A DNA stretch of 60,711 nucleotides, filler included, from Stramenopiles sp. TOSAG23-6 (GCA_900128565.1; 12 parts of 12 records of this genome joined end to end with filler, not necessarily neighbours in it); one strand, 5' to 3'; positions 1-58,320 are shown, numbered from the whole stretch's first letter. Notes: generated from the sequence alone by a model not told the origin. Program-made: numbers and translations.

Positions 1-288
1 TACGTTTTCATCATGAATTTCAAATTTAATTTTTTTTCCGTACCAAATTTTGTACCTAAACAAAAAAGATTTTTTTTATATTTTTTACAATACATGTACG
101 TTGTCCACTTAAATTTTAAAGTTTTGTTGTGCACCAAATTTAATAGCTGACTTATTTCAAGTTTATAAATATGTTTTCACAATATATGCGACTCGTAGAA
201 TTGATGGGGCATGTAGGTTTTCATTTTTTTTTGTCTACATTTTTTTCGTACGAAATTTTGTACCTAACATTTTTTTTTAATTATTCAG

Positions 289-3200
289 CGTTTGCAGTCA
301 GAATTTAATATTTTTGTTCCTCCTACAGCACTAAAAGATCCAGATTGGAAACGTCGTCTTCTGCGCCCGGCACTTTTTAATGTTATAATGAAAAATAGTT
401 CTGTAGACGAGCCATCGAATAATCTTGGTACGCATAGTGCCGATGAAGATGCATACTTTCATCTTGGTAGTATGCTAGGATTCTCGCCTAACGTATTAAG
501 AGGTGAACTTGCTTTAGAATGTGCTCTGGTGGGTAATGCATCTTCTGCACTTCGATGGGGTGAAGAATTGTGTATTTGTTGTGATCCGGATGATAATGAT
601 TCTGATGCTGTCAGTGTGACGCTGAGGGAAGCTGCTACAGCATTACTTCATTATGCATCAGAACATAAGGAAGTGTTCCTTCCCCAGCAACAACAGAAGC
701 TATCATATTGTCCAATTGCAGCAGCTTCACTAGTTGCACATAGTTTATTGCTGTGTCCAAATGATGAAATAGGTAATGTAACGATGCAGTGGCAGAAAGC
801 AGCTGTTGTTTCTGATGTTTTTGTGCTCAGCGAACTTGGTGATTATAATCAGCTATGGGCACCTTCGTCTGCGTTTTCAGGTCACATTGCGTCGGATTAT
901 ACTCATAGTGATATTGGAGGAGTTTCAGATGAAGTTGATATTTCCCTTGATTTATCAATGAGTGAACTCGATCGAAATGAAGTACATGAAAGTAATACAG
1001 GGCTAAACATTTATACCGAGTGGCAGAGAGATGAATGTTTTATTTTTTTTCAAATTCCAATTTTGTTTTCATACGAAATTTCGTACCTAACAATTTGTTT
1101 TTAGATTTTTGAAATATTTTTCCAAAATACATGAATGTGTCGTTTTACCTACTTTGAGTGCGATGAAATTTGCACTTGCAGCATATGTAGAAGACGACGA
1201 AATTAGTGGATTTCAACTTGCACAATGGCTATCTGAACAAAACGCGGATCAGTTGGCATTTCGATCTCTCATGTTAACAAGTAGATTTGCATGGGGAAAA
1301 TTGACGAAATGTCTTGATGATCATTCTCCGTATGGACTTGATAGTTCTACTCTTTCTGATGTGTCAGGTGGAGCATTGCGCGTCCGAATGACATCTGAGG
1401 AAGATGAAGGCGCCCGCGTAATGTCTTCTATTGAAAGGCTTCTAGGGAAAGGATTGCTTTCATTGCATATCGATGTTCCACTTAGTATAGCTTATATGTT
1501 GGCATTACCCCCCAAAGCAGCTTTCCATGGTTTCAGTGATACGCTACAGTCTTCACATGATGATTTTTCACGATTATTACAATTATCCCGTGTAGGTAAG
1601 GCTGCAGCTTCTGCATGGGGAGAAACTTCTTTTCTACTGGAATGCCGAGCTCTTGAAACTAATGCATATTGGTGGACAAGACTTGCACAATTAGGTGTGG
1701 ATTTTGAGAGTAGAAGGTTTCCTACTCCGACGCAGGGCTCTTCATCACAAGTAGCTGTATATTTACGATCGCTTTTACCGCTGTTATTAAAGCAGACAAA
1801 TTATGACATTGAAGAAGTTCTCCGGTTTTCTCAACAATATGGACTTGGAGATGAATTTGTCCTATGCAAATATGTACAACTTTTACTAATCAAAACTGAA
1901 ACATTATTGCCTAACCAAAAACATCGGCATCGTGATTCCTTGTCATCTTTTTGTTACAATAAAGATCTAAAAAATAAATTGGTTGAAGCTACATCCAAAA
2001 TAAGACCATCCAAACTCCAATCTTTGCTTGCTTCTGTTGTGAGCGAAATTAATGGAACTGAATATGAACGACTTCGTTTGGTGATAGGCTTGCAACTTGA
2101 AGCAGCCGACGAAGATGATAGAAAAACAAAAGAGTTACTGAATCTTCGATTACATATTATTGAAGTATTGTTACACTTTGACTCGTACTATAATAACAGC
2201 ATTGCTATACGAAACGGAGAGAAAAAAATACTAGATACCCAGGATACACCCCCAGTTTGCTTAGCCGCAATGAATGCCGCATTAGTCGGGGGGAAATCTT
2301 TAAAAAATGCGAAAAAGTTATCTCAAAATGACTTTGTATCTATAAACGTACCACAAAATAACATCGATAATGGTAATTTAGAATTTAAATTTCCATCAAA
2401 ACCAAATTATCACATACTCTTAACTAAACCCTGGGACACGATACTTCCTCTACTAGAGCCCAATACTTTGAAACATCTCATAGCTTTCAGTGCACCGTTG
2501 GGTCTTGAGGCTGATGAATTTGTTCATCGACTCATTCGGAAAATGTTCAATTTTGATGATACGAATAATTCTAACAAAAATAAAACTACAGCTATAAATA
2601 ATGAAGAACAAAATACGGTACAAAATATGACACCTGCATCTCAACAGAATCATTCCTCCATTCGTATTCCTAGTGTCAATCAACTAGAAGCACAATTACG
2701 TCGTATTCAAAGCCTCGAAAAGAAAATATTTGTCGCTGAGTGTACGTTTTATTTTTTTAAAATTTTGATTTTTTTTCGTACGAAATTTTGTACCTAACAG
2801 ATTTTACAAAAAAAATATTTTTTCACAATACGTGGGCTTCAGATCAATATCCTATGAGTCAAGCTCGTATTGACGTTCTCAACATTGCTATATCTGCTGC
2901 TGAACTTAGGTGCACATCAACTGATAAAGATACACAAAAGGTCAACTCTGATGCTAAAAATAATTTGTCAAGGCTTATTGCTAAAATGAATGCGAGTCGT
3001 ACACACTTGTCTTTGATGTCACTAGGTTTAGATATTGCTGAATTTAGTTTATATTTTGGAAATCCAAAAGAGCTAATTTGCCGATTATATCATGAACTTG
3101 CACCAGCTGCTGCTGTACAACAAGAACAAATTGAACAATCAAGTACAGGATTACTACAAAGTTTTATGGGTTTTTCAAATTCAAAAATTTTCCCACAGAA

Positions 3201-6273: not shown

Positions 6274-9200
6274 ATGCCAATGACATCTACAAATGGAGGT
6301 TCCCAGGACAATTCACAGGTATGGAATATTACTTGTCCTCCCAATGCATTGCCCGGAATGAGCGTCCAATTCAAAGTTGACGGTGAAACATTCCTAGCCA
6401 CGGTGCCTCAAGATTCAAAGCCAGGCGATGTTATCAGCGTAGTTCTAAATAGAGGTCTTACCAATGTGAAATTCGAAGGTCTACTAGAGAAGCAGTCGTC
6501 TGATTTAAGACGGCGTTGGCAACGCCGTTGGTTTGAAATATCAAATGGAAAATTGAAATACTTTGAGTCGCAGTCACGGCTACACCTAAAGGGGCGTTTC
6601 ACAATACGACATTTTTCTGCTCAACCTGTCAAGTCTCGGAGAACCATATTTAAACGGGCCAGTGAAGACTTTGACTTTACTGTATTCATAACATCATACA
6701 AAACATCAAAGGAAGTTAAAATCAGATTGCCATCGAGTGATCTCAAGAAACGACGGGAGTTGGAACTTGCATTGCAGTCTGCCGTGCACTTCACCAATTC
6801 TGCTCAAAATAATTTTGAGTCTCAAACTGATTACAATGCTGTAGTTGAGAAAGCGACTTTATCGCGTAAAGCCGATCTTACGTGGTGGAGATATTTAGGT
6901 GGTGAATTTACACCTTCCCTGGAGTCTATAATTTCTAATTGTATGGATCCAACATCGGTAGTTCAAGTAGATGCTACTCTTTTACTTCTCGATTTTGCAC
7001 TACGCAAATCTGCCGTAGATGATGTCAATAAAGCTTTTAGTACAATACAAAAAAATGATATTATCACCAAAAGTCTGTTCCAAGTTGGTTGGATTCAGCG
7101 TTATGTACAAGTGATTTTATCTAATCCACTTTTAGCGGAAAGTAATCGTACAAAAAAGGTTTTCAAAGAACTACGTGAATTTTTACCGTTTTTCTTGCCA
7201 AGGTTTAAAGCGGCAACAAAGTTAGATCTTTGCGAATTATTTATTGCAAATGCGAGTGCATCTGTATCTGCATCGACGAAGTCTTTACTTCGTGGATCAC
7301 TTCGTAATAATCAACGAAAAGATTTGAATGACTTTAAGAAATTGTCTATCGACGATGAAGACAGTTGTAATAGTGATGATACGAATGGTACATTAGATAC
7401 CAAACTTATGGAAGAATTCATCCGAGCAACAGAAGCTCTTACTGTTGCAGCTGTTGAATTACAACTCTGGGTACTTCCTAAGGACCCTTCTGATGATGGA
7501 GGTAGGAGACTTGCACATGATTTACGCACGACTCCTCAGCTTCGAATTCGTTTAGATCCACACCACCCATTTCGTATATGTACGTTTTCATCATTCATTT
7601 CAAATTTAGTTTTTTTTTCATACGAAATTTTGTACCTAAACAAAAACGGGTTTTTTTTGAGTTTTTATTTGATACGTTTTCATTTTTCATTTCAACTTTT
7701 TTTTTCTCCAAAATATTTTGTACCTAATGAATTTTTTTTAGGAATAAAGAATACTTTTCACTTTACATGGCTTGACTCGTTAGAAAAATTACTTGAACTG
7801 CATTTAATTATAATGGAAACTCAACCTTCGGGGGAGGAAACTCTTCAAAAATTTTCAAAAAGTTTCAATGCAATACCTAGAAAATTAATTCTTAGTATGT
7901 TATCGTTCTCATTTGCTGGTAAACTCACAAGCTCTCTAGTCAACTTATTAATGGTAAAAAAAATTTCATTTGGTCAGACTGTCCTTCAACGAATTATGTG
8001 GATTTTACTGGATGGTTCAAGTTTCGCTACACGTCGAGATGAGCAATTTGAACGCATTCCTAAAGGCCCAAGAAAGCGACTCAAAGATCAGCTCAAAAAT
8101 GTGGAGAAGGTTTTTAAAGATATGAAAAATATGGACCCATCGAGTGATGTGAACAGTTTTTACATTGCTGCTGTTGAAAATGTCGTTCCTATGTGGAAAG
8201 CCACGGATAAGGAAAAGATACTATTGACAGAAAATGTTATTCGATCAGCTCATGCTGCAATAAATGAACAAAAGAATTTAATCAATTTAAAAAGTCTCAT
8301 CGAAATGGCTGGTTGTGCTCCGGTGACTAATATGATTAAAGTTATATTCCCACTGATATATAACCCTGTTTTTGCTTCATTGACCACAAAAGGTGTAAAG
8401 TTGAAACAGTCACTTTCAGCAATTTTTAACCATATTGAAAAACTTATAAAAATGGTAGGAACTAATAGAGATGCTCATGCTGACGCTGCTGATAATGGTA
8501 CTAATCACATTGATAATAGTGATATAATTGCTCGCCATCGTGTACGTTTTTTTTTCGTACGAAATTTTGTACCTAACAAATTTAAGTTTTTTTTTTTTGA
8601 TTAATCATTCATTTTTTACCTACATGTTTTTCATAGACAATTTTGTACCTAACGATTTTTTTACTAAAAAACAACTATTTTTTCACAGTACATATAGCAT
8701 ATCGAAAAATTATTCAGCAAATTATTGAAGAAGGAACATGTCTGCTTCAGCGAATGCTAACTGTTGAATATGAGAAAAGAGCCTGTAAAAATACAGAAAT
8801 ATACAAATCCCAAGCAAAAAATTGTGACGAAAATAGTACACAAAAATCGTTCAAGGATTCAAATAACGATATGCTTTGGCATAGAATCATTTCATATGTA
8901 TGTTTTATTTTTTTTTCAAATTCGATTTTTTTTTTCGTACGACATTTTGTACCTAACAAATTTTAGTTTTTTTTTTTAAATATTTTTCCAAAATACATGC
9001 ATCTTCATTTGTTTCTCGGGTTGGTGTAGATCCAAATTACGTTTTGGATAAGGTGAATGGTACGTTTTCAACCCTAACCCTTATTTCATTTTTTTTTCCT
9101 AGAAAATTCCGTACTTATCGAATTTCGAATTTGATATATTTTTTCGAATACATGTTTGCCAAAAGAGAAGCAATCCATCATTTGGTCTGAAGTTGCAACA

Positions 9201-9498
9201 TTGATGCCAATGTGTTGTAAAACAACTTTATCTCCCAATGAAAATCGTTTTCTGAAAAAGAATGAGAGTTACATCCCTGGTTTACTTCAAAAACTTCCAA
9301 AAAAGGCTCAACCAGCAATGTATGTTTTATTTTTTTTTTTTTTGTATAAATTTTTTTTTCGTACGAAATTTTGTACCTAACGTTTTTTTTTGTTTTTGAA
9401 ATATTTTTCCAAAATACATGTCTTCAATTTTAAAAGGATTTGACCCGCCAAAATGTGAAGGTAATTGTGAATCATTTTTCAGAGCAGAAGCAAAATAA
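6274..9498 (+). CDS. PH-domain protein with a possible PX-associated DUF3818/Lec1(Ypr097w)-like C-terminal region; introns 7580-7768, 8542-8693, 8898-8998, 9060-9153, 9320-9419
   Basis: PH signature FEGLLEKQSSDLRRRWQRRWFEISNGKLKYFES. All five GT...AT removals give one continuous frame to TAA at 9498. The DUF3818 likeness (LLMVKKISFGQTVLQRIMWILL) is from memory and weak. Confidence 0.7.
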
Positions 9499-9679
9499 GA
9501 TTTTATTAAATTTTATTCAAAGTAATGTTTGGTATTGAAAAGATTATTATGTATATGTACAGAATAAAAAATATTAATATTTTGTATTTTGAGAAGTATT
9601 TTTATATGATAATTTTATAGCAAATATTATTAAAATGTACCTCTCTAATCAAAGGGTACCGTAAGAAATACTATTGAAA

Positions 9680-10017
9680 TTAACCTTTCGAATCTAATGT
9701 ACATAATGAAATCGCCATTTGAATCTTTTTAGTCCAATCAAGTCTCTCCAGAGATGTATTTTGGAAAAATATTTCAAAAACAAATTGTTAGGTACAAAAT
9801 TGCGTACGAAAAAAAAACTTGGAATTTGAAAAAAAATAAAACGAACATGATTCCACAGACATATACAACACAGATGCTCCAGTGACTACAGAAAATAAAT
9901 AGCGAGACGTGCTAGCATTGAACGTTTTTTCTTTGTCGTGTTTATTATTGATATCAACAGTGGAATCTTTGTTCAAGATAAATTCTCCTCTAGTAGAGTT
10001 ATTACCAGAAGTTTCAC
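9680..10017 (-). CDS. 3' end of a PH-domain protein (intron 9754-9846)
   Basis: Spliced product YLFSVVTGASVLYMSVESSLERLDWTKKIQMAI is a typical PH C-terminal strand and helix with the conserved W. Confidence 0.65.
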
Positions 10018-10729
10018 ATATATTGTAAAAAAAATTAAATTCGAAATTTGTTAGGTACAAAATTTCGTANNNNNNNNNNNNNNNNNNNNNNNNNNNNNNN
10101 NNNNNNNNNNNNNTTAATTAATTAANNNNNNNNNNNNNNNNNNNNNNNNNNNNNNNNNNNNNNNNNNNNAAACGCAAAGAAAGAAATTATTTCTAAATCT
10201 TGAAATATACCAAGACACAAAATAACAAGATAAAATACTTTCACTACACATAGACTATACCAAAGAAGAGCAAATATTTTTTTGACCTTTGTATAGAAAA
10301 AAATCAATAAACGAAAAAAAATGAAAAAGGTAAAAAAATACAAAAACAAAGAAGAAGAAGAAGAAACTTTAAAGTTGGATGAGTTGTTTTTATACAAATT
10401 ATGTTTTTTATTACGTTTTATTTTAATAAATTATTTAGTTTTAATTTTGATACTTTGATTTTATTATTATTTCGATGAATTATTTTGTCTTAATTTTGAT
10501 ACTTTGATCTTTGATTTTATACGTTTGTTGTTTGATTACAATCAATACCCGACGGTTGTTTTTTTTGCGTTTTTTTTCAACGTACGGTTAAAATTCAACG
10601 GTTACACTCCCTTTTTTCTTCTTCTTCTCATCAAGCTAGAGTTCTCATTGGGAGAGTTTCCAGAATGGCTTCAATTTTTTTCTTTAAAGAGTTCAAATGA
10701 TACAAATTAGATTTTATATGCACTAAATA

Positions 10730-13700
10730 ATGAGTAAGGCATTTCAATCTGATGATGATAGCTCAGTTGAAATTGCAGAAGTACTCACAGGAGAAAGTTT
10801 GGACAAATTATCAATTTCGTTGAATTCATCAGTGACACTTCAAAGACATGGCCTTGAAGCGAGTACAGCACGGAAATATGAGTCATCAGTGTCATTGGTT
10901 CTTCGAGATATCAAACAGCTCAAGGCTTTATGGAATGAAGCACTTCAGNTTTCTCATCATGNTTCTCCTAAAAAAGAAAAAAAGGAAACTTTTCATTGTT
11001 ACGCGACATTGACAGCTGTACAAAACGTTNTACGAGAGAAATTCTCATTTTTGAATAATACAAAAGCCTTACAGGTCGCATACAACCGCACGTGTTCTAA
11101 TAAAAAGCACAATCGTGTTTTATCATCTGAATTTCCAGTTTTGATACAAAATTGTTTATATTTAACAATCTTATGGAAAGATTCNTTCATTAATTCCGGT
11201 GTAAATTTGGAAAACTTTAGTGAATGCGTTAGCCTCTTAGGTATAGATATTAGCGTAATTGAAACCAGGAATATATTTAATAGTATTTCAACTGAATCAA
11301 AAATAAGAAATCAAGAAAAAATAGCTAATTTTTATACTGTATGCGATTGGCTTCGAGATCATCAAACGGTGAAAGTGACGTCATCTTGGTCAAACTTTGT
11401 TCAAAATACAGCTCTATTGGCACGACAGGCAGCGGAAGCAGATGCTACCGAAGTCGATGATGAAGAGTATTTACTAGCTAAACGACATAATACCTTTGTA
11501 CATAATGAGGAATTGTCAATTGATGAAGATTCTTTTCTTTCGAGATCTAATTGNGAAGAAGATTCTTTTCTTTTGAAATCTAATTGTTTTTTGAAATCTA
11601 ATGGTGAAGAAGATACTCCTTTTGAAAGTTTTACTGAGATGAATGAACAAAAAAGTAAACGNCAAATAAAAAATAGTAGTAATAGTAGTATAGTAACTAA
11701 AGCTCTGATGCATACGAGTAATACAGATATAGATGTTGAAAATAAAGAGGATTTGTCGTATGGCAATGAATCATTCTACGATGATGACGATGATGAATTT
11801 TTAAGTGATCATCCAGAAAGTGACGGTGAAACGACAGATACAATAGCAAAACATAAACAAAATTCTGCGAATTTTAAAGCCTGTGAAGAAAATGTAGATA
11901 CAACACAAATGTACAAGGTAAAAACAACATGCAAAGAAAAGGATGAACGAAATAAAGAAACGATTGATAAAAACGTATTTATGTCTACGACTATAGAAAA
12001 AGAGCAAAATAAAGAAACGATTGATAAAAACGTAGTTATGTCTACGACTATAGAAAAAGAAATNATCTCTACTTTTATNATGGATAGCGAAATTCCCTCC
12101 GATGATAAAAAAATACAAAACCATTCTAGTCCTAAACAAAATGTAGAAATAAAGGTTTTACAACGAGCCAACCACAATGAAGATACTATTGAATATAATG
12201 ACGCTGATGTAGATACATTATTATTAGCAATATATTCCGAACTTTGTGGACGTTACGAAGGATCACACACAGTAACCTCCCGTTTGAGACTTTTGATGAA
12301 ATCATGTAAGCGTCATGATACAAAAGCTGCAGTCGATCATAATATCAAACCATCATTTATCATTACAAAAACTAGTTTTATTCGTGTCTTAGCTTTACTT
12401 GGTATTGTTTTAAATGATATACAACTTAAAGTNCTTTCTAGTGTGACACAAAAACACAATGATACAAATAGTATAAGCTTAAATTATAAGAATCTTATCA
12501 ATAGGATGGAAGGATTAATTGAATCATCGCCAATAGTTGTAATGCATTCTGAGGACAAAGAGATACAAAAAAGTCATGATTATAAATTACAACCACATGT
12601 TTACAGTTTGGAAGAACAAAAACTAAAAAAACTAAAAATGAATCTAAAAATGAATCTAGTACAACCTGAAATCAATGATGTAGGAAACAAAGTAATTGTT
12701 AATAATTTAAATTATAATTTAAATTATCCAGAGAAAGTCAAATCAAGATTGAAATCAAGATTGAAATCAAGATTGAAATCAAGATTGAAATCAAGATTGT
12801 TCAATCATACAAAAGATTTGGAACATAATTCTATTCTAAAACTTCAAGCAACATTTCGAAAATATCTTGTTCAAAAAAATATGTTTCAACCAAATAATTT
12901 TCAATTAGGGCCAATAAAAATTACTGGGTTTGAGAAAGGAAGCTTTGATGAAAATCTTTTCATGAAGCTTTGTTTTGCNATCGCACGTAGAAGAAATGGG
13001 TCATTTTCATTCCGGGAGAGTGTTGAAGAGTTGACAAACCAATTAGAAATAAGAGATTTATACGAAAACACAGAGAGAGGTGGATGGATAACTAAAATGG
13101 ATTTTTTAGAATGTCTTTCACTTCTTGACATTGGTTGGGAGAGATGGGAACTTAGCGGGTGTTTATTGTTAATGGAAAAACGCACAGGTGATGGAAATAT
13201 TAGTTATCGTCCCTTTGTAGAAAGCTTGAGGGAAGTTTCGAAGAATCAGACGTTGGAAGAAGAGTTTCGAAAAGCAACTGTCACTGCTATGATTGAGTGT
13301 CGTAAAAGAAAAAACATCTTGAATGCAAAAGGTGTAACTCGAATACAAATGGAGAATAAACAATGTCATAATAGTAAGAACAATGATAGTAAATCGCCAA
13401 ATAAAACTGAAATAAAATACAATGACAATTTAACTTTGTCTGAACAAGCAAGTAAGATCTTAAATGAAGCAGGTTCATTTTCATTTTCCCCAACAAACNG
13501 GACACANAAGAGAAAAACATCAAAAGTTAAGTATTTTTCAACGAAATCTCCGGAACAAGCTGTAGTTCGAACATTATGCGCTGCAATTCGTTCCAAGCGG
13601 ATACTATTTGGGATTAAAATGGCTGGAACTATGGAAGCATTCCAAGTATTAGATCAACCTAGAGAAGGATTTACAAATGTACCTAAAATGTACAAAGCAC

Positions 13701-24300: not shown

Positions 24301-25190
24301 TTTTAAATTTGAAATTGAAATTGAAATTGAATTTATTTTATTTTTTTATGTTTTTTTTTTATAGGAAACAAAAAATTTGTACCTAACATAACAAATGTAA
24401 AAAAAAAAAATTTGAAATATTTTTCCAAAATATACTCTGTACTCAAAGCAGCAAAACAAAATCAAGAAGATTTAGAAGATTTTGCAAATGCAGAAAGACA
24501 AACTTTCCTTGAAGAAAAAAAAGTCATGAAACAAAGAATCGAAGAACTCGAATTAATCCAAACAAATTCAATTCAAAACAAAAAAAACAACATGGAAAAT
24601 ATTGAAAAAATGGAAAAAATGGAAAAGTCTCTCGCTGCCTTGACAGCAGAATTAATGGAAACTTCAGAATCTTTAGATTTAGCACAACTTCAAGCACAAG
24701 AAGCGACTGTAGTTGCTAGAGATGCCACTGCACAATGCGAGAAAACGGCGAAGATTAAAGTGAAAAATGAAGAAATGATTTTGCGTATACAACAAATGGA
24801 GGACAAAGTAATGAACACTGAAGTGACTGTAGATTTTCATGATGAATTTCAATTTTTTTTATAGACAATTTTGTACCTAACAAATTTTTTTTTCAATTTT
24901 TTTTTTCAAATTTTTTTTTCAAATTTTTTTTTCAAATTTTTTTTTCAAATTTTTAAATTTTTTTTTTAACTTTTTATTCTTGGACATATCATAACAAAAA
25001 CATGCTGTAATTCATTCAATTGTGGATTTTGCTATATCAGAAAATGAAAAGCAATGTATTTCGGATAAAATTAACCATACAAATAAAACTTTAAAAAATA
25101 CAGAAAAAGAATATCAATCAATTATTTCTGTTATGAAAAAAGAATTGGATGAAGTAAAAATGAGAGTCAATGTGGTGTATAGTTTAAGTA
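21362..25190 (+). CDS. Long coiled-coil protein with a basic/Ser-Pro-rich N-terminus, about 8 repeat-family introns, 3'-partial
   Basis: Heptad-rich exons join in frame across introns starting 22746, ~23054, ~23243, ~23518, ~23909, ~24287; later junctions uncertain. Confidence 0.6.
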
Positions 25191-44576: not shown

Positions 44577-45464
44577 TCAATACTTTTTACTAATATACTG
44601 TTCTATAGCTTTTTCAATACCATCTAAAAGTTGTGAAGTCGATTCTTTTGATGTTACATTTTTTGATTCTTTTGATTTTACATTTTTTGATTCTTTTGAT
44701 TTTACATTTTTTTGTGCTTCGATCTTATGTTTCGGTTTAATATTACTATTAGTAGTACTAATAGTATTAGTACTATTCATACTACTATCAATACCGTTAG
44801 TATTAGTACTACTATTAGTAGCAGTAATACTACTATCAATACCATTAGTATCAATACCATTAATAATAGTACCATTAATACTACTACTATTAATACCATC
44901 ATTAATACTACCATTAGTATCAATACCATTAGTATGAATACCATCATTAATACTACTATTAATACCATCATTAGTATCAATACCATTAGTATCAATACCA
45001 TTAATAAGAGTACTATTAGTACTATTAGTATTAATAATAGTACTAATTGTGTTATTATAGTAATGAATAGGTTCTGAAATAGGTTCAAGTTCCCCAGGTG
45101 CAATATTTTTGTCTTGATTCTTAGAATTATTAATTTTGTTGTTGTATTCAATTTCAGCAACGATTACATCCAAATCAGCTTTAGCTTGAGCATGTATTGT
45201 TTAAAAAAATATATATTTTAATCGTTAGGTACAAAATTTCATATAAAAAAATCAAAAAAAAATGCAAGAAAAAAGTTACATCATCCCCTTCATCTATAAT
45301 TGATTTTTCAACAACTTTTACTGATGTTTCGATATTTTTCATTGTTTTTTTGAACTCTTTTGCCATTGTTTTGGCTTCATCTGCCATGTTTTTTGCATCA
45401 TTCTTTGCAAGCAATGCAGCAGCAACAGTGACTATATTTACTTTTTTATTGTTTTGGTCTTTTA
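44577..45464 (-). CDS. 3' part of a protein with INGIDT-type low-complexity repeats; intron 45192-45279
   Basis: Exons join in frame (...EGDD|AQAKADLDV...). Confidence 0.55.
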
Positions 45465-45930: not shown

Positions 45931-48294
45931 TTATATACGAACTCCATTGGCTTCAATAATAGCATTTTCTCCAGCATTCAAAACATTTGCTGGTGTTGGA
46001 GCAGGTGTTTGTTTCTGTTCATCTGCAGCAAGTTGGTTAAAGGCTCCTGCAAGATTGACATTCTCTCCATATGTGAAAGGAACTGGATCATGGTTGTCGC
46101 CACTTGCATCTGTGTCACTCTCACTTGCATCTGTCTCACTCTCACTTGCATCTGTCTGACTCTCACTTGCATCTGTGTCACTCTCACTTGCATCTGTGTC
46201 ACTTTCATCTGCGACTTCTTCTTCCAATTTTCTTCGATCATCCCAGTTTGCATTAGTAAAATACGATTCAGCCTCTGCAGAAAAATTGATACTCGGTGAT
46301 TCACCATTAGAAATGGCATTAGCATTCGCATCAACAAAAGTGTTCTCATTAACATCAGTCGCATCAGTGGCATCACCATCAATGGATTCCGCAAAGCCAC
46401 TATTATCCATGGACTCAGATTCTGCAAAACTATTATCATCAGCATTTCCTTCATCAAGTGCAATGTCACCAGCATTTTCTCCATCAAATGTAGTGTCATT
46501 CGCATTTTCTTCACCAAGTGTATCATCATTAATGTTTGTTTCAGCAGGATTGCCCATGATATCAAAACCATCAGCCCCACTGAAGGATTCACCACCAAAA
46601 TCATCAAAATCATCAAAATCATCATCAGCAAAGTCATCAAGATCATCATTCAAGAAGTAATCATCAACTGTATCATCGATATTATTTTCTATATCAATGG
46701 AATCCAAAGTATCATTACTGGACTGTAAAGCATTTTTCATATCTTGAAGCACGTCGGCTTCCAAAGAATCTACTANAGATGTACCAGGGGCTGAAGTAGT
46801 ATTCTGGCTATTACTTTCGGGGGTTGCTTCCAATCTCCTTTCTTCGCCGTTTTCNAATGCACTATTGATTGCAGTATTAGCCTTGTCAACATTTGCTTGT
46901 GTGCATATACACNTTATTTCATCGTTATCCTCGAAGACCTGACCTTCATAAGAACATCCATATAGGAGCTCTCCAACACAGTCATAATTTCCAGATTCTT
47001 CACCAGAATAGTCATCAGATTCATCATCAGATTCACTTTTGCCACCATCTCCAGATTCTTCACCAGAATAGTCATTTATGAGATCATCATACATGTCTAA
47101 TCTTCTTTTGCCATTGTTACCACCATCATCAGCACCACCGGTACCATCATCACTACCACCACCATCGCCAACACCAGNGGCAGCACCACCACTATCACCA
47201 GTATCACTACCACCAGTATCACTACCACCAGTATCACTACCACCTGTATCACCACCGGTACCATCCTCATTGTTACCATCATCACCTGCAGCATCACCAC
47301 CACCACCATAAATGCCACTATTGGCACGCTCAACTTCTTCCTCGGTGCATCCTTCGCTACAAGGAATCCCATTAGCATCTTTAAGGACTTGATCTTTAAT
47401 CAAACAAGTATCTACAAGACTTTCTCTGTTTTGGCATTCTAAAGAAACACCATCATCATTGTTACCACCATCATCAATTGCATCATCACCATAATTATCA
47501 CCATCATCAATTACATCATCACCTGCATCATCACCTGAATCATCACCTGCATCACCATAATTATCACCATCATCACCATAATTATCACCATCATCACCAT
47601 AATTATCACCATCATCAATTGCATCATCATCTGCATCATCAACTGCATCACCATCGTAATCATCACCATCATAATCATCACTATCATAAACACCACCATC
47701 ATCACTTACATCATCACCATCATCATCAACTGCATCACCATCGTAATCAGCACCTAAATCATCACTTGAATCATCACAATCATCACCACCATCATCATCA
47801 ATCGCATCAATCATTCTTTCAATTTTTTGAGCGTTGTCTATAAGAGCTTGTGTACATTTGCACAACTCATTACCCTCGACATCTGTGAGTGGTTGACCTA
47901 CAGATTCACATGTGATACACTTGGCGAATTCCACGTTTTCCTTGGAGCATACACACACATTGCCACAGGTATCTTCGACTTCCAGATCAACAGAGTCACA
48001 GCTATATAGGACGATTCCTATAGCGCAATCACTCTCAGAAGGCTCAGAAGTATAGTTATTACCGTTGTTATCAGCATCTTCACCCTCACTAACTTCAATA
48101 ACAGGAGTACTTTGATCGTTTTCCGTTTTATCCTCAAGTACCCTCAATTTTCTTAAAACGTTTGTGCTTCCTGTGCTTCTTATTCTTGATTGAGTTTCAT
48201 ATGCGATGATAGTGAAAGCAAATAATGTTACAATCAAAACCCCTTTCGCAAATGGTTTATGTTGAGCATAAGATTTTTGCTTCGCTTTTGTCAT
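45931..48294 (-). CDS. Very acidic Asp/Gly-rich protein with an N-terminal TM segment, small Cys modules and RxL motifs
   Basis: 787-aa intronless ORF; TM GVLIVTLFAFTIIAY. Confidence 0.7.
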   Translation of the reverse strand: MTKAKQKSYAQHKPFAKGVLIVTLFAFTIIAYETQSRIRSTGSTNVLRKLRVLEDKTENDQSTPVIEVSEGEDADNNGNNYTSEPSESDCAIGIVLYSCDSVDLEVEDTCGNVCVCSKENVEFAKCITCESVGQPLTDVEGNELCKCTQALIDNAQKIERMIDAIDDDGGDDCDDSSDDLGADYDGDAVDDDGDDVSDDGGVYDSDDYDGDDYDGDAVDDADDDAIDDGDNYGDDGDNYGDDGDNYGDAGDDSGDDAGDDVIDDGDNYGDDAIDDGGNNDDGVSLECQNRESLVDTCLIKDQVLKDANGIPCSEGCTEEEVERANSGIYGGGGDAAGDDGNNEDGTGGDTGGSDTGGSDTGGSDTGDSGGAAXGVGDGGGSDDGTGGADDGGNNGKRRLDMYDDLINDYSGEESGDGGKSESDDESDDYSGEESGNYDCVGELLYGCSYEGQVFEDNDEIXCICTQANVDKANTAINSAXENGEERRLEATPESNSQNTTSAPGTSXVDSLEADVLQDMKNALQSSNDTLDSIDIENNIDDTVDDYFLNDDLDDFADDDFDDFDDFGGESFSGADGFDIMGNPAETNINDDTLGEENANDTTFDGENAGDIALDEGNADDNSFAESESMDNSGFAESIDGDATDATDVNENTFVDANANAISNGESPSINFSAEAESYFTNANWDDRRKLEEEVADESDTDASESDTDASESQTDASESETDASESDTDASGDNHDPVPFTYGENVNLAGAFNQLAADEQKQTPAPTPANVLNAGENAIIEANGVRI

Positions 48295-48594
48295 TGTCTT
48301 TTTCTTTGTCTCGTAAAGGTTCGCTTTCCTTAGAGTACTAAGTTGTCTACAGAACGCCGACCGTTAAAATAACACAAAAACAAGGAAACAAGAACAGAAT
48401 GTAACGTCAATTTTTTGCGCATTTGTTACCCGGTACTTTATATTTTAAAATGAAAAAATTGACAGCTATTTTGAGCCACACACGAATCTATCATCAACAC
48501 TGTTAACTTTGACTACGTAATCCAGTAAGTAGGTACAAGTGTCAAGTGCTCAGCATACAATAATTCTTCTTTTTCTCTATAAAGGTGGTCTACA

Positions 48595-50544
48595 ATGACG
48601 GACTACATGGCAGAACTGATTACAGAGACAGGGTTGGCTGTGCCTGCACCGAATACTATGCGAGGGCATCGTACTCCTATTTCTGTAAACGCTAAAGATG
48701 GGGACACGTTTGCATACGGCGCAAAAAAGATGACAGTCATCCGTAGTTTACGTACGCCGTCTACTTCTTTGGTTGACACGAATCATCAAGAAACAGTCCG
48801 TGTTGCTCGATTTGATAAAAGTGGTTCTTGGGTAGCAAGTGCAGACGTAACAGGAGTACTCCGCGTGTGGGCTTGGAAACGGGAGGATCATTTATTGAAA
48901 AAGGAAAGTCGACCAATTGCAGGAGAGGTTACAGATTTGGCTTGGGATTCCGACTCAAAGCGCATCGCTGTAGTTGGAAAAGCCCGGGGATGCAAAGGCA
49001 AAGTTGTTGGATGGGACACAGGATCGGCGATGGGTGAGCTTACGCAACACACTAAAAATATCAATTGTTGTTCTTTCCGTCAATCTCGTCCGTTTCGTGT
49101 GTGTACTGGAGGAGAAGATAGAAATGTCATTTTGCATCAAGGACCTCCGTTCAAAGTGCTTTTGCGTAATAAGGCCGGACATAAAAATTATGTAAATGCT
49201 ATGGCATACAGTCCTGATGATTCTGTATTTGCTACGGGATCATCAGATACTCGTATTCGCATATGGGACGGGAAAACTGGAGAAAAACTAAAGCAAATGG
49301 CCTGTACGTTTTTCAACCAAATGTCTACTTTTTTTTGTTACGAAATTTCATACCTAACATTTTTTTTTTCCCTTTTCAAATGAATGACTAGAATGTATCG
49401 TTCAATTTGAAGTTTATTTTTATACCACATTCTCTGTATCTAAACATATTTTCGAATTGTGCATATTTCTTTACTGTACACGGAAAGGTGAAAATCCTGG
49501 ACACGTAGGTTCCGTGATGGATTTGTGCTGGTCAGAGGATGGAAAAACAGTAATTTCCTGTGGTAGTGACAAAAAACTTTGCTGGTATGATCTTGAAACA
49601 CGAGCGTGTTTGAATGAGTGTATTGTCCGTGATAAAGTTACCGTGACTTCGTTTCCAGATCTAAAACCGCAAGTCCATCATCAGCTGGTTAGTGTTTCTC
49701 GGTGCGTTTTCATTTCAATTTCGAATTTGGTTTTTTTTTCGTACGAAATTTTGTACCTAACGATTTTTTTTGAAATATTTTTTCATAATCCATGTGCGGC
49801 GATAAATTATTAGTAGGCTCTCTTGCTGGAGATATCAATGTCATTGAAGCTACAGATGGCACATTTGTCGACACTATATATAGTCATACATCTATGGTAT
49901 CTAAAAATAGTCTTGTACTCGCATCCGATGGGAAAACAGTTTATTCAGGAGATCTTGGTGGTATGATTTTCTGTTGGGATGTTACTGCTGATTACCTTCA
50001 GCTTTCACGATTACCTGGTTATGCTGTGCCTGACGATAACCGAATGGCACATGATGGTTGTGTGCAAGGTATCGCAGCTCTTACTAACAATTGTCTTTTG
50101 TCTGTTGGTAATGATGACACGTGTCGTGTTTGGATGAATGGAGTCTCAGCAGGTGTTGGGGATAAACTTGGAGGCCAACCACGTTCTATGGTGTCTGTTG
50201 GTCCTTCTGATAAGGCTACTATGGCCATTATTGTGACTTCGAAAAATAAAGTTCTTACGGTCAATGGGTCAGGGAAAATTATTTCATCATTCGATTTACC
50301 TTATTCTGCTAGTAATGCTCTTGCTGTGTCTGTAACTGGAACTGAAATTGCTATTGGTTCATCTCAAAGAGGTAGAGGTGTAATGCATAGATATGAACTT
50401 GTTGATGGCGTAATTGGCAATGAGCTTCAAAAAGTCTGTGGTAATGCAGAATATTATGAGAATGCTGAAGACGCAGAGTATTCTCCGGATGGCACGATGT
50501 TGGCTGTTGGCTGGGGAAAAGGAGAAGTTTCGCTATATGAAAGT
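48595..50544 (+). CDS. WDR1: Actin-interacting protein 1 / WDR1 (WD40), 3'-partial; introns ~49304-49475 and 49702-49793, donor at 50545
   Basis: PAPNTMRG...VARFDKSGSWVASADVTGVLRVW, FRQSRPFRVCTGGED, HQGPPFK. Confidence 0.88.
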
Positions 50545-51065
50545 GTATGTTTTATTTTTTTTCAAATTCGAATTTTTTTTTCGTACGAAATTTTGTACCT
50601 AANNNNNNNNNNNNNNNNNNNNNNNNNNNNNNNNNNNNNNNNNNNNTTAATTAATTAANNNNNNNNNNNNNNNNNNNNNNNNNNNNNNNNNNNNNNNNNN
50701 NNTTTTTTTTTGTTTTTTTTTTTTTTTTTTTTAGGTACAAAATTTACTAAGAAAAAAAAAAAAAAAAATGTAGTATTTTTTGTAACTCTATTTTTAAAAA
50801 TATACACTTATTTTTCATATATATTTTTGAAAATGATTAACCCTAACCTTACTAATAAATATTTGAATATACATACATTACAGTGAGTTGGAATCATCCG
50901 AGGTATACGTTTTCAATTGTAAAAAACAAAAACAAAAAAAAAAATCGTAGTAAATTTCGTACCTAACAGAAATTTTCAATTGTAAAAAAAAAAAAAAAAA
51001 AAATCGTAGTAAATTTCGTACCTAACACAAAAAAAATTATTTCTCTATATTTCCCTCAATATACT

Positions 51066-51479
51066 TTTATCTATGTTGATAAAGCATGTGAAGAAGAAAT
51101 TGAAAATGATCCAAAGAAAACACGAAATAGTTGGTTTCATAATTTTGAAGTGTGTGCCACGTGTCAAAATGATGTTTCTGTTGGTACAAAAGAAAAGCTT
51201 TTAACGCTTAGTTTACTAAGTAATAACAGTAACCCTCCACCAAATGAAACAAAAAAAAATGCAAAAGTACTAAAATTTTCCCACGCACTGACTCTATTAT
51301 TACTTGCATCAATTTTGGATATTTCAGAAAAAAAAATGAAATACAAAAAAAACATGAAAAATACAAATTATGTATTGAATAGTTGTAATAATTTGTTATT
51401 TACGCAAAATGATAAAAAATATTTAAAACTTGAGGTACAAAATATTAGAAAACAATTATCTCTTATGAAATGTTGCTAA
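51066..51479 (+). CDS. Last exon of an unknown protein
   Basis: Open frame following a repeat intron (~50903-51065) with a duplicated branch motif. Confidence 0.4.
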   Translation, partial: FIYVDKACEEEIENDPKKTRNSWFHNFEVCATCQNDVSVGTKEKLLTLSLLSNNSNPPPNETKKNAKVLKFSHALTLLLLASILDISEKKMKYKKNMKNTNYVLNSCNNLLFTQNDKKYLKLEVQNIRKQLSLMKCC

Positions 51480-52132: not shown

Positions 52133-52518
52133 ATGTGTAACGAGTTTATGTGGGATCTACCACATGAACTTGAAAGCTAAAATTGATAACTAGTATTTAT
52201 GTTTATTTATGTTTACTTCGAATAAAAAAACACTTCGATACGATTACTTGGTACTGTCGCACATTTTATTATATTACTTTGTTTTATTTGCTCATAGACA
52301 ATGTCTTAAATCCTAATCAGTATCAAAAGTACCATTCTCCTGAATATCAAAATATCATTTGGATACTACATGGATCATTCTAGTTAGTTTTGTCCCAGTG
52401 GTCAAATCACTGTTTTTATGTTATATCTGGAGAATGAAACTAACTGTTGGTACATTAAAAAAGGAAAAAAAAGTATTTTAATAATTTCATTGAATACTTT
52501 TTATTGTTCATAAATGCA

Positions 52519-54753
52519 TCACTTACGGCATTGATACTTTTTATTGTTCATAAATGCATCACTTACAGCATTGATACAAGATTTCTTATCATCTAAAATA
52601 AATGATATTTTGCTTTTTTTTTTTTTCATAGGAAATAATGTACCTACATCACCTACTGGGCGTATTGGATGTGTCGTTGGAGTACCAAAACGACTGGAAA
52701 GCTCCATAAAAACGCTTCGTTTCATATCATGTTTATCATATTTTATATGAAAAACAAGTAATTTTGGTATAGATCGTCGAGATGTGATTTTATCCAAACT
52801 CTCTACACGAAATCCTGTCAAATATGCCAAATGAGTAGATTCCAAAATATTTACATTATTTTGGTCGACAACAATATCAACATGGTTTTTGTCAAGTACA
52901 AACTTTGGTGATTTTGATAATGTAGTGTTAGGGTTACGTGATTTTGTTGATGTAGGATTTGGTGATTTTGATAATGTAGGGTTAGGGTTAGGTGATTTTG
53001 TTGATTTTGGTACGGGAAGTAAAGCAACAATAAATTCATTTGTTATATATAAGAAACAATGTTTTTGTTTACCTTGAGATACACTTTTACATAAAAATAT
53101 TTGTAATCCATTGATATCTGGGTATAAAATTTCCTTCCAGATCTTTTTTTTTTGCACATGTAAAATTTTTTGTTCATCCGAAATTTCAAATTTATTTTTT
53201 TCATACTCATTTTTTTCTTTTTTTGACCAAAAATCAAATTGCAAAGCTTTTTTTACAGAATTCCAACTATTCAAACTATTTTTATTTTTATTGTTATTTG
53301 ATGGTAATGGGGTAGTAATCACATCTGCAGTATTTGATTTATTTTTTTGTGTATTTTTTCTGTCACTACAAAATATTTAAAATAAAAAAAAAGCTTAGGT
53401 ACAAATTTTCGTATGAAAAAAAAAAAAAAAAATTAATTTTATAAAACTTTTTATACAAATCTTTTGGTACGTTTTGAAATTTTAAATTAAAAAAAAATCT
53501 CATCATAACACTACACAAAGTAACACAAAGAAAAACAAAGAAACACAAAGAAACACAAAGAAACACAAAGAAACACAAAGTATGGAAATGTTACTTTGTA
53601 CAAAAACAANTTTTTTTTTTTTTTTNTTTTTTTTGTTTAGGTACAAAATTTCGTATGAAAAAAAAAATTATGATTTAAAAAAAAAACATACATTTTCAAT
53701 TCATCTGTATCAATAAATTGTTTCAGTTGTGTCATCATATTAAAAGATATATTATTAAATGCCTTTTTCATTGTTGATGATGCTGATAAAGTGACATTTT
53801 TTAAAGATTTGAAATTATTCTGTAGGGTTAGGGTTTTTTGTGTTTGTTGTTCAGAAATGAAAAGAAAATTTTGAAGAGTTTCAGAATTTTCAGAATTTTC
53901 AGAATGTTTTCCATTTTGTTGAGATTTTGTATTATTAATTTCTTCATTTGCAGCAATACAAGCATTAAAACCACCATGAAGCATACTCACTAATTCAACT
54001 CCATTTTGTATAAAAATATCTACAAATTGTTGTCCAATGGATGTTTCATCATGTATTGATTTCGTGTTTTGTCCAATGGATGTTTCATCATGTATTGATT
54101 TCGTGTTTTCTTGACGTAAATCATCAATAAATACAAAAGAAATATTTTTTCGTTTTAATTGGGAAAATTGACTAATAATTTGATTCAATTTCGAATTTGT
54201 TTTGTTATAATTTTGTAATAAACTTTTATCCAAATGAACGCTAAAGGGTAAATGTAATGTGTGTTCTTTGAAAAAATATTTCAAAATTTTTTTTTGAAAA
54301 ATTGTTAGGNAAAAAANTTNACTATGAAAAAAAAAAAAAAATTTCAATTTCAAATTTAAAAAAAAAATAAAACATACATTATATGAAATTTCAGATCGAC
54401 AATCACAAAGAATGATTTTTATTTTGGGTATTTTGGATATTTTGGATATATTTGAACAATCATGTGTTATACACAAATCATTTTCAATTTTTTGTTTTTT
54501 TTGTTTTTTTTGAAAAATAGTTGTTTTATTGTTTTTATTATTTGTACTACAAAATTCTGTACCTAATGAATGAATTATAGGAGAAAATGTAGAAATTATT
54601 GGTGTTAACACAGAAGGATGAACAAATAAACCATGTAAATAATCACATGTAAAATAAGTTTTCCCTTCTACTGTGCCATTATTTTTTCCTAACTTTTTTG
54701 TACAAATATATTACATTTAAAAAAAAAATTGAATAATAATTTTTTTTTTAATG

Positions 54754-54784: not shown

Positions 54785-55545
54785 GAGTCATAAAAGTAAT
54801 AAAAAAAAACATGATTATTATTGTGTAGAAAATCTAAATTACAGGTTCTTGTATTGTCGGAAAACATGTCAAATTATCAAAATAAATTGTTAGGTACAAA
54901 CATGTACTATAAAAAAATAAAAAAAATCAAAAAAAATCAAAAAAAATCAAAAAAAATCAAAAAAATCAAAAAATTAAAAAATCAAAAAAATCAAAAAAAT
55001 CAAAAAAAATCAAAAAAATCAAAAATACGTCTAAAACCAAACCGATCCAAATTCCACTTGCAAACTCAGTTGTACCTATAAAGGAGACTCGACCAATAAA
55101 TAGTTTTTGTAGTGGAAGTTTAACTATACAAAATTCATCAATTGTTGGAACCCAATTTGTATATTTTGATATTTCGTGTTTTTTTGTATGAAATGTGTCC
55201 AACATTTGAATTTGTAATTTAGGAATAATTTCAAAAGGTGACATGAAAATACAATTCATTTTTTGTATGTTTTGTAATAGTTGTTGTGTTGGTGGTTGTT
55301 CGGTATAACAACATTGGTACAATAAAGTATAAAAACTATTTGGTGTTGAACTCTGTAAGAGCAATGATGTCATCATTAGATTTTGGATTTCGTGTTTTGT
55401 TCTTTTTCGTTGTTTACAAAGTGAAAATTGAATTTTGATACGTGTCAGTAACAATGGCAAAGCATCGGAGGATGTTTGTAATAAAACATCATTTTCATCA
55501 AGTAATAATGCCAAGCAAAAGAATATATGAATAAATGGTGAATCA
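52519..55545 (-). CDS. TBC1D23: TBC1D23-like protein (end of TBC, CAP-Gly insert, rhodanese-like, C-terminal PH-like), 5'-partial, multi-exon with a 6-nt microexon at 54843-54848
   Basis: SPFIHIFFCLALLL; LCDCRSEISYN|TLHLPFSVHLD; VSMLHGGF; LDKITSRRSIPKLLVF match TBC1D23 motifs as recalled. CAP-Gly [40 protein letters not shown]...GLFV. Confidence 0.75.
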
Positions 55546-55623: not shown

Positions 55624-55657
<34 letters not shown>

Positions 55658-56812: not shown

Positions 56813-57076
56813 ATGTATTTTGGAAAAATATTTCAAGAAAAAAAACTTAAATTTGTTAGGTACAAAATTTCGTACGAAAAAAAATTTCGAATTTGAAAAA
56901 AAGTAAAACNNNNNNNNNNNNNNNNNNNNNNNNNNNNNNNNNNNNNNNNNNNNNNNNNNNNNNNNNNNNNNNNNNNNNNNNNNNNNNNNNNNNNNNNNNN
57001 NNNNNNNNNNNNNNNNNGTTAGGTACAAAATTTCGTACGAAAAAAAATTTCGAATTTGAAAAAAAGTAAAACATAT

Positions 57077-58320
57077 ATCTTTCCATTTGGATGTAACAAC
57101 CCAAAATACCATGAGCGAACTTTTTTCTGTTCTAATAATTTTTCTCTTTGACCAGATAAATTGGCAACTACTGAATTTCGCCATTTACTCCTAGCAAGAG
57201 ATATATACAGTGAAAAATATTTCAAAAATTTGATTTTTTTTGTTAGGTATGAAATTTTCTATGAAAAAAAAGAAAATATTACATTCATAATGAAAATATA
57301 CATGGAATGCACAAAATCAGATCGACTTCGTTCATTTTGGAAGCAAAGATCATACTCACGATTCACTGTCCAATGTAATTGCTTCATAAGAGGCAGATTT
57401 GTCGGTGCTTGAAAAGTCAATTTAAGTTTTTTTACACAATCTTTGTCTTTTAAACACCGGAAGATTTCACCAATTTTAAATACTTTCTTTACAAGTCCAG
57501 TTGTTTCAGAGACTGTTAATAAATTACTATCTGGTTTTATATCAATAAGTCTTTCTTGAGATACACCCCACTTATTAATTTTTGTCGTCAAAAAGGTCAA
57601 ACGAACGCAATTTAAATTAGTCTCATTCAAACTAACTCTTCGTCCAATCGTTGATTTTCTTGCTTTGCTACCTCGTGCCTCTCGTCTTCTACCTACGTCT
57701 TGGGTTACTGCAAGGGCAACAATAAATCGATTCAACTCAGCGGGGCTTTTGAGAGTGAGTAAGTATGGTCTATGGCCTTTCGCACTCTCCATGTCATCTA
57801 CGCTTGCGTCAGCAGGTAATCCGAAAACAACTTTGCAGTCCACATCTGACAACGGTTCCGCACATTTTACAAATGTTATTTTATGAACTTTCTTTACTAC
57901 ACTTTTTTTGAAAATAGTCAATGTTGATTCATGTATATCAAGTTCAAGAGTGCGCTCCTTGCGAAAGCCAATTTTATCGGCTTTCCAGCATTGAAAAGTT
58001 GCTATACCATTCTTTTCGAATCCTGGATTTTGATATTTTACTTTTCCAGCCTCATATGCTTCTTTCTCCATTATTTGACCAATAACTTCAAAAGAATCTT
58101 TGATTTTTAAAAACTTTTCATCAATAGACATTCCTCGACGAAAAACAATAGGTTCATTTAGAAGTTCACTTGCAAGTTCCATAGGTCCACCAGGGTATGC
58201 GGTCTCTTCTTCAGCGCTCAGATCTGAGTCTCTGTACGATGTTGGAAAATCTACCGCAGCTCCTTCAGTTTCGCTTTCTGTTAAATTTCCCTGAGATGAA
58301 CATGAATCTGAAGTACTCAT
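57077..58320 (-). CDS. Unknown protein with two PH-like repeats; intron 57203-57301, next donor at 57076
   Basis: Repeats KADKIGFRKERTLELD and KINKWGVSQERLIDIK. Confidence 0.55.

Follow-up and report, generated by a model that had tools for sequence, protein, structure and literature searches.

The window analysed here (the whole stretch of 60,711 nt from Stramenopiles sp. TOSAG23-6, GCA_900128565.1) contains a repeated element of about 100 nt (~90-110 nt), of the form GTAYGTTTT...TTTCGTACGAAATTTTGTACCTAAC...AATACAT and present at about one copy per kilobase, which interrupts protein-coding genes and is removed exactly from them with a 3' end that is mostly AT. The copies were interpreted as an introner-type family (in the broad sense) with a YAT 3' splice site that has colonised protein-coding genes and is removed by the spliceosome, the 3' cut being set by position; we give this interpretation a probability of roughly 0.7. 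Junctions aligned to homologous proteins show that the removal is exact and that the 3' end lies two bases past AATAC without an AG, as had been proposed in a sequence-only reading of this DNA. In the pre-mRNA the cuts fall directly ahead of GT and behind the T of AT, at a 3' site Y-A-T of which the last base is relaxed.

The copies were located with the motif TTTGTACCTAAC, which gave 45 matches with at most one mismatch (0.35 expected from shuffled sequences), and with an nhmmer profile built from 12 clean copies, which gave 56 matches at E < 0.01. The latter were merged into 49 loci, one of them included twice because of an inverted duplication in contig 6. This agrees with the sequence-only estimate of roughly 50 copies. 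The host genes are unrelated (presequence protease PreP, Rab, KNTC1, aminotransferase, WD40, PH-domain and others). With respect to the flanking open reading frames (ORFs), 37 loci are in the sense orientation, four are antisense and eight are unclear, and the sense bias suspected earlier is thereby upheld. Among the four antisense calls, two rest on weak, partial matches (E of 1e-3 and 8e-3) and one lies at a contig end. The locus at 54849, to which an AA terminus had been assigned, scores as antisense and its 5' end is not clear, so that this terminus is unverified.

The likeness between copies spans the whole element: the 5' GTAYGTTTT, a T-rich stretch, the palindrome TTTCGTACGAAA, TTTTGTACCTAAC, an A/T stretch and (GAAATATTTTTCC or TTTTTCAC)AAAATAC-AT. 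The median pairwise identity of 22 full-length copies is 0.68 (range 0.52-0.93), compared with 0.44 for shuffled controls. Because this likeness runs along the entire element, including a palindrome that is no known splicing signal, the copies are, as judged from their sequences, one repeat family related by descent.

At its centre the element has a perfect palindrome of 12 nt (TTTCGTACGAAA; for example at 8941-8952), and GTAC occurs three times per element, once each in the 5' site, this palindrome and the branch box. The pattern of TTTCGTACGAAA and GTAC might go back to an old internal duplication or mark a site bound by a protein.

At nine of the 24 contig ends the sequence passes into a family copy; the family therefore breaks this assembly. 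In seawater DNA and RNA runs, the bins covering the element reach summed depths in the thousands, compared with about 6 for unique flanks (these are sums, not copy numbers). Among metagenome contigs, an exact 22-mer gave no match and a gapped pattern matched a single locus (L001), which neither nhmmer (E up to 1) could relate to the element nor BLAST to the window and which was discarded as a chance hit.

Removal from coding sequences and RNA

28 introns were curated at both ends (median length 101 nt, range 88-189 nt). The removal tested extended from the G of GT through the second base past AATAC, and an intron was termed supported if at least 30 codons were open on each side after removal, as was the case for 22 of the 28. 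The unspliced frame was closed in 17 of the 28, so that removal of exactly this length is needed in these genes. Eight junctions were gap-free with respect to homologues: one each in the PreP, aminotransferase and WD40 genes and five in a PH-domain gene.

The PreP intron (16257-16367, minus strand; GT...AT, 111 nt) splits the Pfam PreP_C domain, and its exons abut at residues 854|855 of 2fge_A. The intron of the class III aminotransferase gene (ETNPPL-like; 40014-40107, plus strand; GT...AT, 94 nt) is in phase 2. Its upstream exon aligns as far as residue 318 of 6tor_A and the downstream exon from residue 320, the split codon AT|G providing residue 319 (M). The Rab GTPase intron (28087-28182, minus strand; 96 nt) reads GT...TT and follows an exon that ends in TT as well. 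Its upstream exon aligns to Rab8A through ...NVENAF, removal gives ...DEAF|EHLARKVLE...KGGCC*, and every read-through frame hits a stop codon. All three junctions had been named in the sequence-only reading; the first two are borne out by homology alignment and the third by its frame and the CC tail. The KNTC1/Rod intron (2742-2833, plus strand; 92 nt) reads GT...GT after an exon that also ends in GT. 550 codons are open upstream and 300 or more downstream, the flanking ORFs hold the Pfam domains ARM_KNTC1_3rd and Rod_C, and the unspliced frame stops after 18. The GT end at 2833 and the TT end at 28087, both predicted earlier, are thus confirmed.

Five successive junctions had also been predicted within 6274-9498, and all five are gap-free when aligned to the protein P0002, which was found by an exhaustive HMMER search (a word-based search among longer proteins with the PH-domain exon gave nothing). 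All lie on the plus strand and read GT...AT. They comprise a double (nested or tandem) intron at 7580-7768 (189 nt; HPFRIWLDSLEKLL versus HPLRVCLEALERLL in P0002), a composite intron at 8542-8693 (152 nt; the exon ends in GT and there is no flanking repeat), an intron at 8898-8998 (101 nt; ORF of 87/63 codons), a diverged copy at 9060-9153 (94 nt; the exon ends in TG; nhmmer E = 9e-6) and an intron at 9320-9419 (100 nt; QPAMSSILKGFDP versus QPFMALMLSDFDP). The WD40 gene intron (49702-49793, plus strand; GTGCG...AATCCAT, 92 nt) follows an exon ending in CG, again with no flanking repeat, and the protein P0001 reads QVHHQLVSIARCGDKLLVGSL in a gap-free, highly conserved block.

RNA evidence was obtained from a comparison of public DNA and RNA runs that covers contig 2 and lists 15 of 258 joints. 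Contig record 30 of X8, a polyA metatranscriptome (217 nt, one mismatch), matches 9946-9847 (100 letters) and then 9753-9637 (117 letters). It joins 9847 to 9753 and skips exactly the 93-nt family intron GTTCG...AATACAT at 9754-9846 (minus strand). Record 31 (151 nt) matches 9937-10017 and continues with 70 nt unlike the intron. It stops matching at the predicted acceptor of the family intron of which the 3' part (...ACAATATAT) lies at the contig end (10018-10069, minus strand), 10017 being the predicted first exon base after ...AATATAT. The earlier proposal that the elements are removed from mRNA is therefore backed by one bridging polyA contig and one that ends at a predicted acceptor. Nothing else that is unique on contig 2 is covered by X8; since its cover is limited to the 3' end of one gene, polyA RNA fits better than DNA carry-over. 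Seawater metagenomes of one study carry long near-matching pieces (record 2 of X3: 2478 nt with nine differing letters). Most contig 2 exons are uncovered in X7 and X8, and X3 gives almost no cover at 9430-9596; these gaps are informative neither way. Many element-to-element joints that could be read as splicing were taken as cross-matches between repeat copies, as their sides are short and they are present in DNA runs too.

The other curated introns were tested by reading frame, and open codons on the two sides are given as pairs. On the plus strand, removal leaves 238/106 codons open at 37952-38052 (GT...AT, 101 nt), 179/300 at 38308-38407 (GT...AATCCAT, 100 nt; the exon ends in TT), 97/142 at 24287-24435 (...AAAATATAC end, 149 nt), 33/64 at 23243-23347 (GT...AT, 105 nt) and 101/114 at 23909-24021 (GTATAT...AATCCAT, 113 nt); for the first three of these the unspliced frame is closed. 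On the minus strand, the values are 77/204 at 45192-45279 (GTAACT...ACAT, 88 nt) and 299/61 at 57203-57301 (GTATAT...TGTATAT, 99 nt), both closed when unspliced, and 291/148 at 42642-42749 (GT...AAATCAT, 108 nt), which is open unspliced too. The intron at 54261-54377 (minus strand; GT...GAACAC, 117 nt) leaves 111/207 codons open. The AC end proposed for it is consistent with this ORF, which is open without removal as well.

At 1-188 (plus strand) one copy directly abuts the next, and no exon separates the two (...ACAATACAT followed by GTACGTTGTCC...CACAATATAT); further nested or tandem copies are found at 7580-7768, 8542-8693, 22746-22906 and 50930-51070. A copy at 57015-57077 (minus strand) has the 5' end ATATGTTTT instead of GTATGTTTT, so that its first base is A, and an N gap has taken its 3' end. 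At 24300-24345 and 54920-54990, short tandem arrays (GAAATT-type and TTGATTTTTT-type) are found just within or next to diverged copies.

Termini, splice signals and mode of removal

Among the 22 supported introns, the 5' end is GT in 21 and GA in one (GAATGT...ACAT at 1033-1132, plus strand, 100 nt; 255/300 codons open after removal, closed unspliced). The 3' end is AT in 16, AG in two, AC in two, GT in one and TT in one. By position, -3 is C in 19 and T in three (a pyrimidine in all 22), -2 is A in 20, G in one and T in one, and -1 is T in 18, G in two and C in two. The first base of the downstream exon is G in 15 of 22. The AATAC box is mutated in seven of 22 (CC in three, AT in two, GT and TC in one each), and the AT end is kept in five of the seven, after boxes changed to AATCC, AATAT or AAATC.

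The 5' consensus is GTAYGTTTT, with G at +5 in 19 of 22, T at +6 in 21 and T at +7, +8 and +9 in 22, 22 and 21, respectively. The branch box TACCTAAC holds CTAAC, and its branch A lies 26-76 nt (median 39.5 nt) from the 3' end. U2-type features are therefore present in most copies as GTAYGT, which can pair with U1/U6 (GTRNGT), and as CTAAC (CTRAY) within TACCTAAC. The U2-type YAG end is altered: Y and A are kept at -3 and -2, and the last base is mostly T.

In most copies the final 29 nt are free of AG. A CAG located five bases upstream of the end was considered as the acceptor and was ruled out by frame in both cases in which it occurs: at 8542-8693 the use of CAG at 8686-8688 breaks the frame (6/92 codons), and at 43524-43618 (minus strand; ...CACAGTACAT, 95 nt) the upstream CAG leaves just 15 codons open, while removal through AT leaves 143/300. 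Nearby AGs are thus unused at these two introns; two family copies do end in AG at the usual offset. One of them (213-328, plus strand) has the family 5' half and branch box (nhmmer match to model positions 2-66) followed by a canonical ...CCTCCTACAG end, and its GT...AG removal is in frame (33/258 codons). The other (23518-23625, plus strand; ...CACAATGTAG end) leaves 63/133 codons open and is closed unspliced.

The favoured explanation is as follows. Each copy carries a yeast-like 5' splice site (G|GTAYGT), the branch box TACCTAAC and the ...AATAC-AT end. Removal would be carried out by a major-type spliceosome, which is proposed because the 5' and branch signals are conventional; GTAYGT and CTAAC are the textbook targets of U1/U6 and U2. 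The 3' cut would be set by position relative to the 3' box and the branch, and not by AG. Candidate readers of this position are a factor bound to the AATAC box, the branch distance or a short (AU)GUAU/AUAC(AU) helix. New copies may perhaps arrive with a 2-bp target duplication, usually AT, and removal of the element together with one copy of the duplication could then restore the original frame exactly. That clearly intergenic or antisense copies are nearly absent would be in keeping with spread as RNA (reverse splicing), and equally with selection against unspliceable insertions.

Several observations weigh against this explanation. ORF support is weak for six of the 28 curated introns, and six are open even when unspliced and are uninformative in the frame test. 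The bridging RNA contig is a single one and comes from a mixed-community metatranscriptome, not from the organism's own RNA, and the presence of the joined form in DNA runs is not assessable from the 15 of 258 joints listed. The very high depth of the element extends to the RNA runs, where retention, stable excised introns or DNA carry-over are possible. The terminal inverted repeat amounts to no more than GTAT/ATAC (4-8 bp with AT included), a weak hallmark of a transposon, and the two-base flanking repeat is missing in eight of 22, several of these being two changes from a match; neither empty sites nor an autonomous element were seen in the window. Predicted RNA folds were not more stable than shuffles in six of six cases (z from -1.8 to +0.1). 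Conservation by descent is inseparable from conservation by function. Finally, no small nuclear RNA (snRNA) gene (Rfam to E of 0.5) and no splicing-factor gene was found in the window.

The position of the termini has to be considered together with the flanking repeats. Two-base repeats, in which the end of the upstream exon carries the same two bases as the end of the intron, occur at 14 of 22 introns (mean of 11.1 in shuffles, P = 0.025); they are mostly AT/AT, with GT/GT at 2742-2833 and TT/TT at 28087-28182. Because of them, the same mRNA results from GT...AT and from an equally long AT...AC reading that is shifted two bases to the left, and the RNA contigs cannot discriminate between the two. 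The shifted reading would place the introns in the AT-AC class, the first and last bases of which are a known compatible A-C pair, and it finds an AT start in 15 of 22 and an AC end in 15 of 22. GT...AT is preferred because GT is present in 21 of 22, compared with 15 of 22 for the shifted start, because the terminal AT is kept in five of the seven copies with a mutated AC and because both informative repeat-free junctions fit it. At 49702-49793, P0001 has the R that GT...AT predicts, not M, in QVHHQLVS-x-x-R-CGDKLLVGSL. At 8542-8693, GT...AT gives ARHR where P0002 has RHR (in D-I-x-x-R-H-R), and the shifted reading gives H. The repeat-free junction at 9060-9153 gives N-G or K-C opposite R-S in P0002 and discriminates neither reading. 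A shifted cut would also fall two bases upstream of a perfect GTAYGT. From these residues and base counts GT...AT is the better reading, in line with the termini first proposed, and the AT-AC assignment is quite improbable. Marginally less so is removal by the minor (U12-type) spliceosome with co-evolved snRNAs, which we consider unlikely. U12-type splicing tolerates GT-AT and AT-AN termini and sets its 3' cut by branch distance. The family introns lack a polypyrimidine-AG end, and their 5' end is conserved to +9, with seven of nine positions in common with the U12 consensus GTATCCTTT; conservation to +9 is nevertheless expected among copies of one repeat. The 5' site differs from the U12 site RTATCCTT in having G,T and not C,C at +5/+6, the branch box is TACCTAAC and not the U12 TCCTTAAC, and the branch A is 26-76 nt from the 3' end, compared with the approximately 10-26 nt needed by known U12 introns. 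The misfit of the U12 motifs had been recognised in the sequence-only reading and holds. GT-AT is listed among the non-canonical U12-type termini (seven in human and mouse) and reported to be U12-competent in the sections of PMC1557818 on such introns.

Removal without a spliceosome, in the manner of the nonconventional introns of euglenids and hemistasiid diplonemids, would have the paired ends presented to an endonuclease and a ligase. The ends can indeed pair, (AU)GUAU with AUAC(AU) forming the outer stem in three of six minimum-energy folds, and the non-AG ends and the short flanking direct repeats, which are a feature of nonconventional introns (in the part of PMC12621601 that describes them), point the same way. 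Fold stability is nevertheless that of shuffles in all six cases, and inspection by eye of positions +4 and -6 gave no consistent pattern of covariation supporting a terminal helix. The borders are regular, not variable, and a perfect U1/U6-type 5' site and a conserved CTAAC are present, both of which nonconventional introns lack according to the relevant parts of PMC6221363 and PMC12621601; such removal is accordingly rated as hardly probable. Still lower stands a joined form at the DNA level, through ciliate-like programmed excision or strain insertion polymorphism. The RNA runs are mixed-community metatranscriptomes that may contain DNA, and the DNA runs show strains that differ from the window. 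Against this, removal is needed in 17 of 28 gene models although the single-cell DNA carries the inserts, X8 covers the 3' end of one gene only, as polyA RNA would, and a 37:4 sense bias with conserved 5' splice-site and branch motifs is unexpected under DNA excision. A ciliate-type internal eliminated sequence, which would show no strand bias relative to genes, is disfavoured by the same orientation counts and by the joined form in a polyA RNA run. A group II intron (GUGYG...AY) was rejected: only the termini are similar, and at 88-189 nt with no Rfam match the elements differ from a six-domain ribozyme of several hundred nucleotides. A more serious, if tentative, alternative is that the spliceosome rule itself has changed in the lineage, YAT (loosely YAN) being normal, set by branch distance or the 3' box, with AG tolerated, and that the family spreads in RNA form, being reverse-spliced into transcripts at AT|G. 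Such spread would account for the copies being nearly all genic, in the sense orientation and exactly the size of an intron. The sequence-only reading had made a strict branch motif plus the AATACAT box a lineage-wide requirement. That part is not supported in this form: the likeness is that of a repeat along the whole element, AATAC is mutated in seven of 22 and AG is used in two of 22. Lineage-wide rewiring exceeds the evidence because the shared sequence is that of a repeat family and introns outside the family were not examinable; a scan of the window for GTRNGT...CTAAY combined with ORF gaps established none.

One possible intron outside the family was noted at ~52420-52526 (minus strand), where GTAAGTGATG...TTTTTTTTCCTTTTTTAATGTACCAACAG (GTAAGT...AACAG) follows a duplicated 40-nt segment that ends a 285-amino-acid ORF. 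Judging by its motifs, this candidate could possibly be an ordinary GT-AG intron in which a GTACCAAC box adjoins the AG.

Gene content and assembly of the window

The window consists of 12 contigs of 4954-4987 nt each, separated by spacers of the form N44-TTAATTAATTAA-N44. The GC content per contig is 26-39%. The host is an AT-rich marine microbial eukaryote for which the standard genetic code is sufficient. ORFs of at least 100-150 amino acids cover ~74-81% of the bases, and the long-ORF eukaryotic genes include those for presequence protease (PreP), KNTC1/Rod, a class III aminotransferase, Rab, PH-domain, WD40 and CAP-Gly proteins and an amino-acid permease. Among the 120 PreP homologues listed, the best named ones are from land plants and green algae (38-42% identity) and no euglenozoan name occurs, which is weak evidence on the lineage. 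A comparison with the Protein Atlas gave M16 clusters of bacteria and arthropods only and was uninformative in this respect. An Rfam scan of the window gave zero matches at gathering thresholds or at E up to 0.5, and no tRNA was found.

The contigs at 10170-15144 and 30456-35423 have identical first and last 20 bases, both contain a 1489-amino-acid ORF (no Pfam match), and their patterns of single Ns match at an offset of seven bases; they are probably assembly redundancy or two alleles. In the contig at 25388-30355 the last 1674 bases are the exact reverse complement of the first 1674, with a permease ORF and one element at both ends. This arrangement resembles the inverted chimeras that arise in whole-genome amplification. 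An 810-amino-acid ORF at 45931-48363 (minus strand; no Pfam match) is located in a region of raised GC content (~0.40) and strongly negative GC skew (-0.38), and this region differs from the rest of the window in its numerous overlapping ORFs on both strands. At 58579-60385 (plus strand) two long ORFs in different frames overlap at ~59588-59622 within near-identical repeats (GCAGCTAGAAATGGTCACTTAGAAGTATTGAAGTGG), where there is no element; the overlap is either a frameshift or an assembly slip.

Comparison with known systems

The 3' AG is among the most constant signals of eukaryotic genes, and to our knowledge all spliceosomes examined so far pair the terminal intron G with the base that begins the intron. 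The known large-scale departures (Fritillaria, Amoebophrya, euglenozoans) blur both ends and the internal signals. Here, GTAYGT, CTAAC and Y-A at -3/-2 are conventional and the last base alone is changed, in dozens of introns within 55 kb. The family is thus a clean natural experiment on second-step recognition of the 3' site, the contact between G+1 and G-1 and the roles of U2AF1, Prp8, Slu7 and Prp18, and it opens a second question, namely how an intron-forming repeat supplies or borrows its own 3' end. If the rule has indeed changed, nature would have replaced the terminal intron G on the scale of a genome. In practice, gene-prediction and splice-aware alignment software that presumes an AG would annotate almost all genes of such an organism wrongly, and the family would escape introner surveys that start from annotated introns. 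The literature compared, which does not include a 2016 single-cell study of marine diplonemids cited elsewhere for predicted non-canonical introns, yielded no description of GT-AT introns as a class or of the TACCTAAC box.

In Fritillaria borealis, most introns break GT/AG, are thought to be removed by U2-type splicing and tolerate non-AG 3' ends. Both ends are diverse there, with less than 10% GT/AG, in contrast to the 5' GT in 21 of 22 found here and a difference confined to the last 3' base (PMC13326754, as far as its account of intron ends extends). The repeated introns of Amoebophrya resemble the family in having short direct repeats that overlap their borders, terminal inverted repeats and non-GT-AG borders. 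Their inverted repeats are of 8-20 nt and their direct repeats of 3-5 nt, with no clear terminal dinucleotides in the portion of PMC7789003 that was compared, whereas the present termini are regular and accompany a standard 5' site and branch box. Animal GT-AT introns have identical terminal dinucleotides (U12-type, and U2-type in DGCR2) and show that such introns are spliceable. There, they number a handful per genome and are mostly U12-type, going by the relevant sections of PMC1557818; here, they make up 16 of 22 in 55 kb and U12 motifs do not fit. The nonconventional introns of euglenids and hemistasiid diplonemids share non-AG ends, short flanking repeats, end pairing and a suspected origin from miniature inverted-repeat transposable elements. 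They differ in having stable structures and, in the excerpts of PMC6221363 and PMC12621601 considered, no conserved borders or U1 complementarity; the borders here are regular and the folds no more stable than shuffles.

The likeness to introners (Micromonas, Aureococcus, dinoflagellates, fungi) consists in many similar copies, unrelated host genes and exact removal (parts of PMC9860276 and PMC12130899). Some introner families carry a 5' splice site and borrow the 3' site from the target-site duplication (PMC9860276, in its treatment of insertion). The families described in the compared parts of PMC9860276 and PMC12130899 use GY-AG. A 2025 survey treated unfamiliar splice sites as suspect, and the 3' ends listed in the part of it considered are AG and AC only (PMC12130899). 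The present family departs from GY-AG in its YAT end and has a candidate duplication of 2 bp, a minimal inverted repeat and no autonomous partner seen in the window. The closest known kind is the introner; what is unusual is the 3' splice site.

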